Below, in pieces: positions 4,401 through 31,108 of a DNA stretch of 31,108 nucleotides (the first letter of the stretch is position 1; each line of letters opens with the position of its first letter). Origin of the DNA: a virus (Duplodnaviria; Caudoviricetes); the IMG/VR virus record IMGVR_UViG_3300025168_000388, positions 1-31,108 of that record; one strand, 5' to 3'. A program made the translations under genes and the position numbers. Under the pieces are notes generated by a model that was not told where the DNA came from, did no database searches, and saw nothing but the letters and a program-made list of their open reading frames with translations.

Positions 4401-5251
4401 TTTTTTTGTTTTAATACGTTATTACCACCAATTGTAAATCCTAATCCATTATTGTAATCAAATCTTAGTGGCTCGCCTAACATTGTAGGTTTGCCACCAG
4501 TTTCTTTATCTTTTATTTTATATACGTGTACTTCTGTCATCATCCACAATTTATCGTGTGATATCAAACGGTGTAAACAAAGGAAGTTGTCCACCCTGTT
4601 TGGAAAAACTTGGCCACCTTCAGAATCAGCTTTTCTTGGTGGTTGTATATGTCCGTTTAATTGATGGTCTGGTGGATATACACGCCTTGCAGCTTCTGTT
4701 TGTGGATGCATTGCAATAAACATTGTTTTGCCTGTTTTATTACAAAACTCTCTAACATCATTACAAACTTGATAGTTTCTTTCAAATTGTGAAATTCTTC
4801 TATCGTGGTTTATACCTGTGTATGGGTCAATAAAACAACCATCACAATCTTCAGCTTCAAATATCTTTAGTAATTCTTTATGATTGTAAAGTTTTCTATT
4901 ATCAATAAATTTAAAATATTTACTAATCTCATCGTGGTAAAATAAATATTCATTTAAATCTTTAATTGTTTCACCTGTCCACATTTGTATTATATCTCGC
5001 TTCAATTGTCCAGCGTTGTTTTCACCTGACCAGATGCACCACTTCTTACCGTGTATTTTACTTAGTGCAGTTAAGTACCATAATATGTAATTAGTTTTAC
5101 CAACATTATCTAAACCTAAAAACATATTAAAGTTGCCATTCTTATAAAGAAAGTAATCATCTAATAAACAACCAATGCCAACACCTTTTTTAATTCTACC
5201 TTCTTTAAATGCTTTTAAATACGGTACTGTGGCTTTATCTTCTAATATCAT
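4397..5251 (-). CDS. DnaB-like (SF4) replicative helicase, C-terminal domain only
   Basis: Walker A GLDNVGKT, WSGEN, FIDPY, AMHP motifs; directly downstream of the initiator. Confidence 0.82.
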   Translation of the reverse strand: MILEDKATVPYLKAFKEGRIKKGVGIGCLLDDYFLYKNGNFNMFLGLDNVGKTNYILWYLTALSKIHGKKWCIWSGENNAGQLKRDIIQMWTGETIKDLNEYLFYHDEISKYFKFIDNRKLYNHKELLKIFEAEDCDGCFIDPYTGINHDRRISQFERNYQVCNDVREFCNKTGKTMFIAMHPQTEAARRVYPPDHQLNGHIQPPRKADSEGGQVFPNRVDNFLCLHRLISHDKLWMMTEVHVYKIKDKETGGKPTMLGEPLRFDYNNGLGFTIGGNNVLKQKK

Positions 5252-5655
5252 TGGTCAAGAAGTTTTTGCACTTCATCATTTACTTTTAATAAATTATCAT
5301 TTGCGTAATTATCTTTTCTTTTCTTTTCTTTTCTTAATGCTTGAGCCCTGCTTAAGCCCCCCTTCTTTCCGTTGCTAACATTTCTCTTGTGTTCTACTAA
5401 GCGTTGCTGGTATTGTTCATCTAACCATTTAATACTAATAGCTTCTTCTTCTATCTTAAATAACTCAGCATCTAACAAAGTACTCCATTGTTTAGGTATT
5501 AAAGATTTAATTTGTTTTCTGGAAACTTTACATTCTTTGCTCCAGTAGTAGCAGCAGACTTTCATAAATGCACCTTGAACATCTAAGTCCATAAATGATA
5601 TACTGCCTGTAATCCATTGATTAGGATAAAATTTAAAATATGGTAATTCTTTCAT
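5248..5655 (-). CDS. Replication initiator-like protein (DUF1376/YdaU-like N-terminus) with internal iteron-like repeats
   Basis: LPYFKFYPNQWITG...QGAFMKVCCYYW, then NGKKGG and AAGAA-repeat-encoded KEKKRK; precedes the helicase as in O/P-type modules. Confidence 0.7.
   Translation of the reverse strand: MKELPYFKFYPNQWITGSISFMDLDVQGAFMKVCCYYWSKECKVSRKQIKSLIPKQWSTLLDAELFKIEEEAISIKWLDEQYQQRLVEHKRNVSNGKKGGLSRAQALRKEKKRKDNYANDNLLKVNDEVQKLLDQ
5311..5363. repeat. Origin-like element: (TCTTT)n tract plus GCTTGAG/GCTTAAG boxes at 11-bp period; 39/47 identical to 30553-30599
   Basis: Direct reading and manual ungapped alignment. Confidence 0.6.
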
Positions 5656-5697
5656 AATTGATTAGTTTGATTTGATTGGTTTAATATATAAAAATAT

Positions 5698-10046: not shown

Positions 10047-10082
10047 TTAACAATTTTGTTAAATATAATAAAAATAAATTAT

Positions 10083-11438: not shown

Positions 11439-11687
11439 TTATTCTGGCATTGGCTCTGTCCAATCGCTACCACTAAGTAGCGTTAGTGCTTCTGTTTGGT
11501 TCATAACATCACCAACAGGCACTACCGAACCATCTGTAATAAAACTTGGTGTAACACTATAAGAAAGTAATCCTTGAGTGTTTGCTAAGTTTCTTCTCAT
11601 ACTTTGTGCAGAGCTTTGTGAAACCTGAGAAAAAAGCACCTTGTCTGTATCGCTTAAATTAATTACTATATAACTTCTATTATTCAT
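11439..11687 (-). CDS. Small tail-fibre-associated hypothetical protein
   Basis: 82-aa ORF after the LamG fibre gene. Confidence 0.6.
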   Translation of the reverse strand: MNNRSYIVINLSDTDKVLFSQVSQSSAQSMRRNLANTQGLLSYSVTPSFITDGSVVPVGDVMNQTEALTLLSGSDWTEPMPE

Positions 11688-18886: not shown

Positions 18887-18897
18887 ATTTTTTTAAT

Positions 18898-18928
18898 AAA
18901 AAAGGGGAGGTTAATCACTCCCTCCCCT
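18898..18928 (-). terminator. Intrinsic terminator after the major tail gene
   Basis: AGGGGAGG-N10-CCTCCCCT followed by TTTTT on the minus strand. Confidence 0.85.
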
Positions 18929-18979
18929 CCAATCAAACTATATATTATGAATCACACAATTAATTTAATCGCGTATTTT

Positions 18980-19528
18980 TTAACTATTGGTTCCCACCGT
19001 AACTGTTACAGTCGCTGAACTCATTCCCGCAAGAGGGTCAGCAGCAGTACCGCCAGCAATAAAATTAGCTGGTTCTAATTCTTGACCAGTTAGTGTTAGT
19101 GAGTAACCACTCATATCACCAAAAGCAGTTCCAGTAGCTATGCTTCCACCAGTTACTTCCATCCCGTGTTCTAAACCACATAATAAGAAATTACCATTTC
19201 TATCTTCTACGCAGATATGAGGTCTACCGTAAGCCATAAGCTTTAGTTGTAAGTTATCTTCTTTAGATAATTTAGGTAGTGTTAAAGTTAATGTTTCTTC
19301 AAAGAATGTTGTTCCATTCTCTCTTGAGGATGTAATAGCAGTTTCCAAACTATTTGTTCCTTTTAAATCATATTGTAAGGCAGTAATTGTACCTGTCATA
19401 TCTGTAATTTCATCAGCAGTTTTTGTTACAGTTCCTAATTCACCAAAATCAATGAACCAAGCTCTTACTATACCACCAATAACATCTTTACAAGGCACTT
19501 TTCTACCAGCTGTTAAATCACAAGCCAT
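18980..19528 (-). CDS. Major tail (tube) protein
   Basis: MACDLTAGRKVPCKDVIGGI...ENGTTFFE...GYSLTLTGQE pattern; follows the capsid gene. Confidence 0.7.
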   Translation of the reverse strand: MACDLTAGRKVPCKDVIGGIVRAWFIDFGELGTVTKTADEITDMTGTITALQYDLKGTNSLETAITSSRENGTTFFEETLTLTLPKLSKEDNLQLKLMAYGRPHICVEDRNGNFLLCGLEHGMEVTGGSIATGTAFGDMSGYSLTLTGQELEPANFIAGGTAADPLAGMSSATVTVTVGTNS

Positions 19529-21154: not shown

Positions 21155-21185
21155 TATAAACGTTTGAAAACCTTTACTGTTATAT
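21155..21185 (-). promoter_or_regulatory. Putative phage late promoter, copy 2 (ATATAAC-N13-AAACGTTTATA), upstream of scaffold/capsid
   Basis: Intergenic; exact motif and spacer length shared with 29817-29847. Confidence 0.8.
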
Positions 21186-29329: not shown

Positions 29330-29811
29330 AAAAAAACAAGAGAACCAAATACAATATCTAAAGTTACTTCTGACATATCGTATTTTTCAGCACTATCATA
29401 ATCTTCTATTAAATACTGTTTCTTCTTCTTGTAAGTTATTGGTCTATATAAAACACCTATTGCTTTGTTCATTAAATCCCAATCAGCTAAGTAAGTATCT
29501 AAATCTACATATTCACCAAATGATATATCATCCAGCTTTGGTATGAATGCAAACTCTTTATCGTTTAAAGTAAACCTATCTATAAACTTAGGTTCGTTAT
29601 TAAATAGTTTTGATAGTTCTTCGCAGATGTTGTTGATATCAGTAGCTTTTATTTGTAACACATTCTTAAGTGGTATATTACAAAATATTTCTACCATCTT
29701 TTGTTGTAGAAACGAATCCAGTTCTTTACCCTCAGCAATCTTTAACCACTTTTGGTATTGCTTTAAAGTAACCTCATTAAGAGTTTCTGGTATGTTAATT
29801 GTTAGTTTCAT
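29140..29811 (-). CDS. Tail assembly chaperone-like protein (gpG analogue, zero-frame product)
   Basis: 223 aa; contains the slippery run GTT TTT TTT TAC; first gene of the tail operon. Confidence 0.65.
   Translation of the reverse strand: MKLTINIPETLNEVTLKQYQKWLKIAEGKELDSFLQQKMVEIFCNIPLKNVLQIKATDINNICEELSKLFNNEPKFIDRFTLNDKEFAFIPKLDDISFGEYVDLDTYLADWDLMNKAIGVLYRPITYKKKKQYLIEDYDSAEKYDMSEVTLDIVFGSLVFFYSLKNELQKTILNYLATQQEIELPQHLRDSLQNGGGINLSMDLLMETFSNTMKLPNQNYTPV
29329..29335 (-). other. Slippery heptamer T_TTT_TTT for programmed -1 ribosomal frameshifting
   Basis: Nine-T run (plus-strand A 29328-29336) correctly phased as X_XXY_YYZ. Confidence 0.78.
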
Positions 29812-29816
29812 TTATA

Positions 29817-29847
29817 TATAAACGTTTAAATTAGTGAATCGTTATAT
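29817..29847 (-). promoter_or_regulatory. Putative phage late promoter, copy 3 (ATATAAC-N13-AAACGTTTATA), upstream of the tail operon
   Basis: Intergenic, ends 5 nt before ATG 29811; flanks also closely match the copy at 1817-1847. Confidence 0.8.
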
Positions 29848-29855
29848 ACAAATAT

Positions 29856-29895
29856 AAAAAAAAGTAGGCAATGCTCTTTTGCAAATACCTACTTT
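29856..29895 (-). terminator. Intrinsic terminator ahead of the late promoter
   Basis: AAAGTAGG...CCTACTTT stem followed by a T-run. Confidence 0.75.
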
Positions 29896-29960
29896 AAACC
29901 AAAACATAAATTTTAAATCAAGACTTTAACTAAACGTATTCAGAAAGTTGTTTATTATTT
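29856..29960 (-). ncRNA. Candidate ~100-nt small RNA
   Basis: Segment with no convincing ORF between a TATATTTG -7 box (29966-29973) and a terminator; contains UGUUUUGGUUU complementary to two early-gene leaders. Confidence 0.4.
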
Positions 29961-29975
29961 ATAATCAAATATAAT

Positions 29976-30002
29976 AAAAAAAAGCTACCTATTACAGTAG
30001 CT
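29976..30002 (-). terminator. Intrinsic terminator overlapping the stop of the Zn-finger ORF
   Basis: AGCTAC-N8-GTAGCT followed by a T-run. Confidence 0.7.
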
Positions 30003-30182
30003 CTTTAAAAAGAAAGTATATTTCTTATCTATTGACCATTTGTGAGGATACATATATTTTTCAGCTACTGCTAAAAACTTACCACAACTGTTACAAAATA
30101 TTTCTGTGTCATCATTTACCTCTTTTATGTTTGGCAAATTTTGTGGTTTTGCCTCTATACATATATTACATTTTACTTTCAT
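29985..30182 (-). CDS. Small zinc-ribbon protein (CxxC...CxxC)
   Basis: CNIC and CNSC pairs; AAAACCAAAACAA leader. Confidence 0.65.
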   Translation of the reverse strand: MKVKCNICIEAKPQNLPNIKEVNDDTEIFCNSCGKFLAVAEKYMYPHKWSIDKKYTFFLKSYCNR

Positions 30183-30245
30183 TTGTTTTGGTTTTAATTT
30201 CTGAGCACTTACGCTAAGATAACTCGGCTGGCTCTTAGTATTTTT

Positions 30246-30458
30246 TTATTTTAAATCTCCATTACTGTGCCAAAAAGTTTTATCTAATCTTTCTATTATC
30301 CATTTGAACCTTGTATTTTCATTTTCTTCTTCTTGCATATTTGCAAGCATAGGAGCTTCTTGCATTGCTTTTGTATTTGCTTTTATTTTATCCTCTAACA
30401 TACTAATAAATAGTAATGCTTCTTGTGATGTCATTGATACTTTTTTAAAATCTATCAT
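30246..30458 (-). CDS. Hypothetical early protein
   Basis: 70 aa; downstream of a host-type promoter with an AAAACCAAAACAAATATT leader. Confidence 0.7.
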   Translation of the reverse strand: MIDFKKVSMTSQEALLFISMLEDKIKANTKAMQEAPMLANMQEEENENTRFKWIIERLDKTFWHSNGDLK

Positions 30459-30489
30459 AATATTTGTTTTGGTTTTTTTAATTACAATG

Positions 30490-30520
30490 CTAATATATAA
30501 ATATATTTATAAACTACAAA
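30490..30520 (-). promoter_or_regulatory. Bacteroidota primary-sigma-type promoter TTTG-N19-TATATTAG
   Basis: Matches the -33 TTTG / -7 TAnnTTTG consensus with one mismatch and a 19-nt spacer. Confidence 0.7.
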
Positions 30521-30552
30521 ATATTTTAAACTTTTTTTTATTTTTCTTATAT

Positions 30553-30609
30553 ATCTTATCTTTTCTTATCTTATCTAAATGCTTGAGGGTGGCTTAAGCG
30601 TGGCTTCAA
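30553..30609. repeat. Second origin-like element: (TCTTW)n tract plus GCTTGAG/GCTTAAG/GCTTCAA boxes at 11-bp period
   Basis: 39/47 ungapped identity with 5311-5357; lies just downstream of the terL stop. Confidence 0.6.
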
Positions 30610-31108
30610 TAAATGTGATATTCTCCTAAGTTTGGATTCTGTAATTGGTAACTAACTGCATACCTCAAAGCATCTATAGCGTGATTAAAATTATCTACTG
30701 GTGTTTGTGATTTCTTTTCTAACCAACAATAGTTATTTAACTCTTTAATTAATTCTGTACTATCTTCAGTAATTACTAAATCATAATCTTGTAGTAAACT
30801 AATACCAAACGTAATACTTCCTTGACCTTTAATTGCTGGTACTACATTACAATCTCTACTTAGTTCTGTTATTAATCTTGGTTCTGCTGAATCACCTACT
30901 ATTAAATTATCTGCTGCAAACTTTTTATTCAATTGTAATATCTCGCTTGTAGTTAATTTAGTTTGGTAGAAACATAGTTGTATATAGATAACTTTATTTT
31001 CTTTATCTATGCTTGTTTTAACTAATGTTGAGGGGTCATTGCTAAAACCATAATCTTGGCCATAAACTACTTTACCTACTTGCTTAAATTCTCCTATACT
31101 CCAATCAG
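30606..31108 (-). CDS. terL: Terminase large subunit, C-terminal nuclease part (joins 1-779 across the junction)
   Basis: GQDYGFSNDP, DSAEP and NHAIDALRYA motifs; in frame with 779 after removing the 70-bp overlap. Confidence 0.93.
   Translation of the reverse strand, partial: DWSIGEFKQVGKVVYGQDYGFSNDPSTLVKTSIDKENKVIYIQLCFYQTKLTTSEILQLNKKFAADNLIVGDSAEPRLITELSRDCNVVPAIKGQGSITFGISLLQDYDLVITEDSTELIKELNNYCWLEKKSQTPVDNFNHAIDALRYAVSYQLQNPNLGEYHIY
31039..31108. repeat. 70-bp terminal direct repeat, right copy
   Basis: Identical to 1-70. Confidence 0.97.

Follow-up and report, generated by a model that had tools for sequence, protein, structure and literature searches.

What does a phage keep in roughly 100 nt that hold no conserved reading frame, lie between two terminators and stand directly ahead of its structural genes? 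The window, by which we mean the whole stretch of DNA that was analysed, is 31,108 bp long and represents a complete virus record that carries terminal repeats. The 42 genes called in it are all on the minus strand, and their leaders are A/T-rich and lack a Shine-Dalgarno sequence. The gene for the large terminase is broken by the ends of the record, which suggests that the terminal repeat arose through circular assembly and does not mark a physical end of the genome. Reading 3' from this gene, the order is a 70-aa ORF, a 65-aa ORF, the candidate RNA unit, a 223-aa gene and the structural genes. In a protein search, the only cultured matches were the Nonlabens (Persicivirga) phages P12024S/L, to which the portal protein is 33% identical, and a DNA search of cultured phages returned a single 65-nt match within the terminase. 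Because the Nonlabens phages are the nearest cultured relatives, the host of this phage is likely a member of the marine Flavobacteriia. An earlier note on this DNA had read its translation signals as typical of Bacteroidota, and this kinship, the A-rich leaders without Shine-Dalgarno sequences and the TTTG-N19-TATATT(T/A)G promoters of the neighbouring small genes are all consistent with that assignment. The features that concern us are as follows, in the order in which they would be transcribed.

3-779 and 30606-31106, - strand: large terminase gene, broken across the record ends.

30490-30520, - strand: promoter-like TTTG-N19-TATATTAG of the accessory operon, read from the sequence.

30465-30475, - strand: leader AAACCAAAACA of the 70-aa gene, 7 nt before its ATG at 30458; proposed target 2.

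30246-30458, - strand: 70-aa accessory ORF, from the ORF list.

30184-30194, - strand: leader AAACCAAAACA of the 65-aa gene, 2 nt before its ATG at 30182; proposed target 1.

29985-30182, - strand: 65-aa accessory ORF, from the ORF list.

29976-30006, - strand: T1, the intrinsic terminator closing the accessory-gene transcript, with an 11-bp stem, a 6-nt loop and T8, from a terminator scan.

29966-29973, - strand: P1, TATATTTG, a box like the Bacteroidota -7 promoter element, for the candidate RNA; an exact match to TANNTTTG.

29858-29961, - strand: predicted small RNA of about 100 nt (104 nt), from the putative start to the U-tract, with both ends predicted from the sequence.

29923-29948, - strand: 5' hairpin of type A, CUUUCUGAA-UACG-UUUAG-UU-AAAG, present in the minimum-energy and centroid folds.

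29896-29906, - strand: seed UGUUUUGGUUU, with its core GUUUUGG between the hairpins; the complement of AAACCAAAACA.

29856-29895, - strand: T2 terminator, composed of an A-tract, a hairpin at 29892-29864 and T8 (U8) at 29863-29856.

29856-29849, - strand: second TATATTTG, directly 3' of T2.

29819-29844, - strand: conserved motif TAAC-N16-CGTTTA, which precedes the ATG of the 223-aa gene (29811-29809) and lies outside the RNA.

The earlier note had described a terminator, a promoter box, about 100 nt without a convincing ORF, an antisense tract and a second terminator, and this layout was borne out, as T1, the TATATTTG box, a stretch of about 100 nt without a conserved ORF, the 11-nt tract and T2 follow one another in the window. 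T1 is preserved in many relatives as GAGCTACTGTAAnAGGTAGC followed by T8. P1 fits the TAHHTTTG consensus, which comes from Flavobacterium johnsoniae, where transcription starts 4-5 nt downstream of this -7 element (PMC6847099), and applying the same rule to P1 places the predicted start of the RNA at 29961/29960. Across 48 distinct cassettes P1 takes the form TAT(T/A)A(T/C)nTTT(G/A), and variants with TATATTTA exist among them; in the promoters of F. johnsoniae, the G at -5 is nearly invariant (PMC6847099). Boxes of the TANNTTTG type are not enriched in the window (51 vs 60 expected). One further P1-type box, TTATTATATTT followed by A and not G, lies at 10061-10071 (- strand), 15-25 nt before the start of a 353-aa gene, which suggests that this type of box may be a working promoter elsewhere in the phage.

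T2 escapes a simple terminator scan on account of the scan's loop and GC rules, yet it folds and covaries, and it has the G+C hairpin and U-run of an intrinsic terminator, with 12 of 12 pairs kept among relatives and two double changes. The region with the second TATATTTG and TAAC-N16-CGTTTA adjoins the unit in every cassette-bearing locus. The sole ORF between P1 and T2 would encode 21 aa (29842-29907) and overlaps the terminator; we rejected a tiny peptide as the product because its frame is broken in relatives with GGTTAAAG and because types B and C have no equivalent. A search of the whole window against Rfam 15 with cmscan under permissive filters gave no match at E<=1, and ARAGORN detected no tRNA or tmRNA in the window.

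Relatives were gathered through the neighbouring 223-aa protein, which yielded about 280-300 stretches in the viral collection, and 80 loci were kept; a wider search with a 79%-identical homologue recovered only the same population. In 66 of the 80 loci, a seed-bearing unit occupies the same place, directly upstream of the conserved structural-gene promoter; in three more the unit is present but lacks the tract, and the remaining 11 lack the unit altogether. Two cassette types retain the promoter, the hairpin and the terminator but lack the GUUUUGG tract. GTTTTGG is exact in 43 of the 48 distinct cassettes, and one locus (L148) retains it though both flanks differ. GG is followed by 1 to 3 U residues, depending on the cassette, which indicates that pairing with a leader would span 8 to 11 nt. 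The U-run of T2 abuts the downstream promoter in all copies found through the protein and in all 147 cassette copies found by pattern, although that pattern itself included the junction of T-run and promoter. Over 1775 diverged pairs, identity is 0.94 in the terminator and 0.96 in the downstream promoter and leader, compared with 0.77 at third codon positions of the adjacent gene; as judged from these comparisons, the unit is under purifying selection. The corresponding figure for the seed is biased by the search pattern and was set aside. A search of public data for expression found 22 sequencing runs, 11 of them recorded as RNA and all of them available as assembled contigs. Metatranscriptome contigs of relatives from four of the runs span 29789-30002 and bridge T2 at a depth near that of the flanks; such contigs carry neither transcript ends nor strand, and they speak neither for nor against a discrete RNA.

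Folding and covariation bear on whether the stretch acts as RNA. The window RNA folds at -19.5 kcal/mol (z -2.09), and the type B version gives a z of -2.82. In the type A fold of the window, the seed tract is partly paired with upstream A/U, and in the type B fold it is unpaired and positioned 3' of a hairpin. At least six sequence-unrelated 5' parts occur among the relatives, and every one that was folded forms a hairpin, which begins anywhere from a few nucleotides to about 13-20 nt past the predicted start. Covariation was scored in 26 sequences of types B, C and D. Within this set, 97.8% of cells pair, compared with 35-51% when the partners are slid; four pairs have changed on both sides, two in each hairpin, and the covariation score was reached by none of 500 shuffles. 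The two such pairs of the 5' stem are found in types B and D, and in T2, where 100% of the terminator cells pair, they are a change from G-C to A-U and one from C-G to U-A. In type B, the loop AGCCAATG is conserved and its stem covaries. A conserved unit, at least six 5' versions that form hairpins, compensatory changes in both stems and an exact GTTTTGG in most cassettes together make a small non-coding RNA likely. The most economical reading, towards which we lean, is that the locus encodes a selected, structured RNA unit that runs from promoter to terminator. It would probably represent a new family of phage small RNAs, and an action of this RNA on leaders is plausible.

The leaders in question belong to a slot of exchangeable genes between the terminase and the unit. 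The slot is hypervariable: among the relatives it holds 23 distinct small proteins (38-103 aa), of roughly 16 unrelated types when sorted by eye, behind one shared promoter-leader module. Breakpoints between variants of the slot or of the cassette are sharp, with sequence types swapped as blocks. Neither the 70-aa nor the 65-aa ORF has a PHROG or Pfam match, and almost none of the 23 leader-bearing proteins matches a known family. In relatives, the ORFs of these 23 proteins are each preceded by ...AATTAAAACCAAAACAA(A)(A)ATG, such that unrelated ORFs share one leader; some accessory ORFs have leaders without the CC, and at some loci the leaders differ (AAAACAAATATT, AAGAAAAACAAA). TTTG-N19-TATATTTG stands in the same position before different ORFs, and the first accessory ORF of each locus also has the TTTG-N19-TATATT(T/A)G promoter, which matches the Bacteroidota consensus and suggests that the accessory genes are likely transcribed by the host polymerase as early genes. 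ORFs that bear the leader are always on the same strand as the unit and within about 600 nt upstream of it.

Other conserved elements lie in the same interval. A weak hairpin at 30203-30234 (- strand) separates the two accessory ORFs, and its outer stem changes from GAGC/GCTC to GAGG/CCTC among relatives, with both sides altered; in some loci, a hairpin of this kind sits directly before P1 and not before a leader. Right after the terminase stop, 30545-30599 (- strand) contains a near-palindrome, GCTTAAGCC-ACC-CTCAAGC, which is perfect in relatives; behind it come GATAAG repeats (AGATAAGATAAGAAAAGATAAGATATATAAG), conserved from locus to locus.

The complementarity between the seed and both neighbouring leaders, which the earlier note had put at 11 nt, is exact. 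AAACCAAAACA occurs three times in the window, once antisense in the unit and twice in leaders. In the leader of the 65-aa gene the complement of the seed spans -3 to -13, and in that of the 70-aa gene it spans -8 to -18. The occurrence of AAACCAAAACA on the plus strand is followed by neither an ATG nor an ORF, and a reverse-strand leader was rejected. When the start regions of all 42 genes were ranked by duplex energy, the leader of the 70-aa gene came first (-16.8 kcal/mol) and that of the 65-aa gene second (-13.1 kcal/mol). Against shuffled seeds, this top ranking stood out less, as the best duplex was equalled in 18 of 500 shuffles and the second-best in 56 of 500, which makes the pairing modestly unusual. 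The 104-nt RNA as a whole has six exact complementary matches of at least 11 nt to the sense strand.

Across genomes, leader and unit are linked in space. Where ACCAAAAC falls within 30 nt of a start codon in the 11 near-complete genomes, the gene is always a small ORF immediately upstream of the unit, and the leader is present in seven of the nine seed-bearing genomes and in neither of the two cassette-less genomes. Two seed-bearing genomes that are 76-77% complete have no ACCAAAAC leader in their available sequence. Among the 42 seed-bearing loci in which the whole variable region is in view, 23 have no ACCAAAAC leader there. The earlier note had looked to changes in the seed that are matched by changes in the leaders, and no such covariation was found: the one informative variant, GTTTCGG (L034/L111), stands opposite an unchanged leader, and the GCTTTGG variant of L094 has no cognate leader in its record. 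In Flavobacterium, adenines at -3, -6, -12 and -13 promote initiation (PMC6847099). The spatial link between leader and unit, pairing within the -3 to -13 window and the precedent of the Bacteroides small RNAs GibS and FopS give modest favour to the idea that the RNA would act against the leaders.

Two further sites proposed for the same mechanism fared less well. Pairing with an 'initiator' leader (UUAAACCAA, 5676-5684) is near chance, with three matches vs 1.1 expected; UUAAACCAA sits 21-29 nt upstream of the start codon at 5655, is absent in three of the six relatives in which gene and seed are both retained, and does not track the number of U residues in the seed; this pairing was rejected. 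A recurrence of the layout at 18929-18957 was rejected, as the tract there is a different one (AGUUUGAUUGG), has no TANNTTTG box and is paired in the predicted fold, and 7 of 100 shuffles equal its 9-mer match, which is thus close to chance. The interval 18929-18957 falls within the 3' end of a 182-aa gene, and 18895-18985 (- strand) folds as two adjacent hairpins (-28.1 kcal/mol, z -5.07), the second of which is a GGAGGGG...CCUCCCC terminator.

We also considered how far the leader is particular to these phages. The leader 19-mer TTAAAACCAAAACAAAATG was found in 77 viral stretches, 66 of which lie outside this phage group as judged from the upstream sequence. The ATG of the 19-mer begins a reading frame in 60 of them, counting frames of 50 aa or more and frames still open where the locus ends, and only two of the 66 have GTTTTGG on the same strand within 900 nt. 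The 19-mer also occurs in 83 bacterial stretches; the titles of 55 among the 80 listed point to Bacteroidota, and in 47 of these 55 it opens an ORF. Its adenines fall at -3, -6, -12 and -13. At loci L261-L420, many Bacteroidota genomes and phage contigs from outside the group have it as the start region of genes that are themselves unrelated. The 19-mer appears to be an optimal leader for ribosomes that initiate without Shine-Dalgarno pairing, either through convergence or because it is widely shared. It is a generic Bacteroidota start region, and the efficiency of translation is enough to explain its conservation, with no small RNA required.

Of the explanations considered, the full model in which 29858-29961 (- strand) encodes a small RNA that acts against leaders has the best support, and we put it forward tentatively, as possible rather than probable. 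According to this model, host RNA polymerase would transcribe an RNA of 65-105 nt from P1 that ends at T2, and the 5' hairpin would stabilise it. The exposed GUUUUGG(U) tract would pair in trans with ACCAAAAC in the leaders of the adjacent accessory genes, or in cis, as the 3' portion of an accessory transcript, where T1 is absent or leaky. Pairing would occlude the A-rich start region that Bacteroidota ribosomes need, such that accessory genes driven by host promoters would be turned off. A broader and more speculative proposal, which we consider unlikely as a whole, is that 'anti-leader' RNAs occur in Bacteroidota phages as counterparts to an A/C-rich start tag shared by a set of each phage's own genes under host promoters, with this unit as the version found in phages of marine Flavobacteriia. 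The RNA would then time the silencing of interchangeable accessory genes, and it would stand ready for newly acquired cassettes that bring the standard leader. Such readiness would have the RNA persist in genomes in which the slot is currently empty.

The alternative that survives best holds that the unit is an insulator made of terminator and promoter, which would shield the structural-gene promoter from transcription of the accessory slot by host promoters, and a conserved boundary at which accessory cassettes are swapped by recombination, with no role in trans. The tract ahead of the terminator is rich in U and G and the generic start region in A and C, and their match would then be coincidental. 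T1-P1 and T2-P2 are indeed modules of the same kind, each a hairpin with T8 followed by TATATTTG, and the unit is fused directly to the structural-gene promoter in every cassette-bearing locus and never occurs elsewhere. The sharp breakpoints with block exchange of sequence types are consistent with a boundary, as are the versions of the unit without a seed and its retention without a cognate leader in 23 of 42 loci; the leader is generic, and the statistics of pairing within the genome are weak. However, an insulator requires a terminator alone, which leaves unexplained both the promoter box and the at least six unrelated 5' hairpins with their compensatory changes, and GTTTTGG survives the replacement of both flanks in L148. 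Furthermore, the whole unit is missing from 11 of the 80 loci, which indicates that it is not needed for expression of the structural genes. We consider an insulator without further function somewhat unlikely.

A genuine small RNA could instead have its main target elsewhere, whether a host mRNA or an RNA-binding protein, and be recognised through GUUUUGG or through the loops AGCCAAUG of type B and AAAAGA of the terminator. Retention of the unit where the ACCAAAAC leader is absent would be expected of such an RNA, and so would the conservation of AGCCAATG above a covarying stem in type B. In Bacteroides, the protein RbpB is reported to bind FopS and GibS (PMC11697453). Each of five Flavobacteriia genomes contains a few starts of the form AACCAAAAC-A(1-4)-ATG. 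However, host mRNAs, which the earlier note had raised as potential targets, appear unlikely in this role, since the looser form AACCAAAAC-N1-10-ATG occurs 21-51 times per genome in the same five host-like genomes, not above the 28-41 of the reversed control. Within the phage, no convincing conserved alternative target emerged from the five of nine seed-bearing genomes that were scored with a seed pattern that missed one terminator variant; the best alternative group of orthologs, that of a 107-aa gene at 11439, scores only via bases inside the 5' hairpin. A principal target other than the accessory leaders is, in our estimation, rather improbable.

An action confined to cis, in which accessory transcripts that reach T2 would fold their 3' anti-leader onto their own 5' leader and limit translation or stability, is very unlikely. 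Leader-bearing ORFs do lie on the same strand and close upstream, and T1 is absent in several relatives (among them L063, L065, L067, L075, L076 and L080), in which the accessory transcript would run into the unit. T1 of the window, however, is a strong terminator with its 11-bp stem and T8, many loci have no leader to fold onto, and the conservation of P1 implies a separate start of transcription. Least likely of all is a leader of the lambda 6S type, in which P1 would be the true late promoter and T2 a regulated terminator that is read through with an antiterminator: a promoter and, some 100 nt on, a terminator that immediately precedes the structural genes have the expected form, but cassette-less loci keep TAAC-N16-CGTTTA directly before the same gene, this motif recurs before two other gene blocks without P1 or T2, and no antiterminator-like protein was found among the proteins scanned. 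A type I toxin-antitoxin pair was rejected, because the 23 leader-bearing proteins, judged by eye, are charged, soluble-looking and of many unrelated types.

The TAAC-N16-CGTTTA motif is a subject in its own right. It occurs three times in the window (29819-29844, 21157-21182 and 1819-1844, all on the minus strand), compared with 0.18 expected, and none of 100 shuffles reaches three. Its copies sit just 5' of the 223-aa gene, of a 201-aa gene and of an internal ATG, near 1811, that precedes the packaging genes, and each of ten relatives has 2-4 copies. We take the AAC-N16-CGT spacing within it to resemble that of promoters for ECF sigma factors. The motif may be a phage-specific late promoter. 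A 135-aa ORF (5248-5655, - strand) gives a weak, sub-threshold match to an ECF sigma factor (PF07638, E 0.0013) and no match in a search of solved structures; it is a possible candidate for the phage sigma factor that would recognise this motif.

If the unit is a working RNA, it would add a layer of post-transcriptional control to an abundant group of uncultured marine phages, of which the viral collection contains about 280-300 related stretches, and it would provide a compact test case for the repression of translation on leaders without Shine-Dalgarno sequences. If it is an insulator or recombination module only, it documents the swapping of accessory genes behind a fixed promoter-leader in these phages.

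Among known arrangements, the PeSL cassettes of T4-type phages, each a promoter with a stem-loop, flank small ORFs that are swapped. The locus described here is like them in that a hypervariable slot of interchangeable, unrelated small ORFs has conserved modules of hairpin and promoter at its borders. It differs in that the pair of modules around the unit encloses a structured non-coding stretch with a conserved tract rather than an ORF, and in that its promoters are of the Bacteroidota type.

Our literature searches found no small RNA from a Bacteroidota phage, and in the main text of a 2025 review of phage-derived small RNAs, 'Bacteroid' and 'Flavobacter' do not occur (PMC12197685). That review describes the phage RNAs c4 (phages P1 and P7) and sar (P22), which are 68-77 nt long and pair around the ribosome-binding region of a nearby phage gene, thereby blocking its translation (PMC12197685). 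Like c4 and sar as described there, the candidate is a small, phage-encoded RNA with predicted pairing at the starts of nearby phage genes. By the same account, c4 and sar are parts of the immunity systems of temperate phages of enterobacteria, where they target an antirepressor mRNA (PMC12197685), whereas the targets proposed here are interchangeable accessory ORFs with one common leader. Furthermore, unlike c4, the unit has no match to the Rfam C4 model and no immunity context, its neighbours being the large terminase, two ORFs without an assigned function and structural genes.

The nearest parallels in mechanism are GibS and FopS, trans-acting small RNAs of Bacteroides thetaiotaomicron that base-pair beside the start codon and thereby block initiation (PMC7366714; PMC11697453). 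A FopS-like sequence has been reported in a phage predicted to infect Bacteroides (PMC11697453), and the authors of the GibS study proposed that AT-rich Bacteroides small RNAs may require long seeds (PMC7366714). As far as these reports describe GibS and FopS, the unit differs from them in that its seed lies between a 5' hairpin and the terminator rather than at the 5' end, and its predicted pairing is 8-11 nt long. It is also borne by phages of the marine Flavobacteriia type, and its proposed targets are the phage's own accessory genes. The absence of a match to any Rfam model indicates that the unit is not a member of GibS/FopS or c4, and it is probably an uncharacterised candidate of the kind 'phage-encoded base-pairing small RNA'. 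With GibS and FopS, as they are described, it shares a Bacteroidota setting in which leaders lack a Shine-Dalgarno sequence, and a Rho-independent terminator; an unpaired seed, predicted for type B but partly paired in the type A fold of the window, and repression through pairing beside the start codon, within the A-rich initiation window, would be further likenesses.
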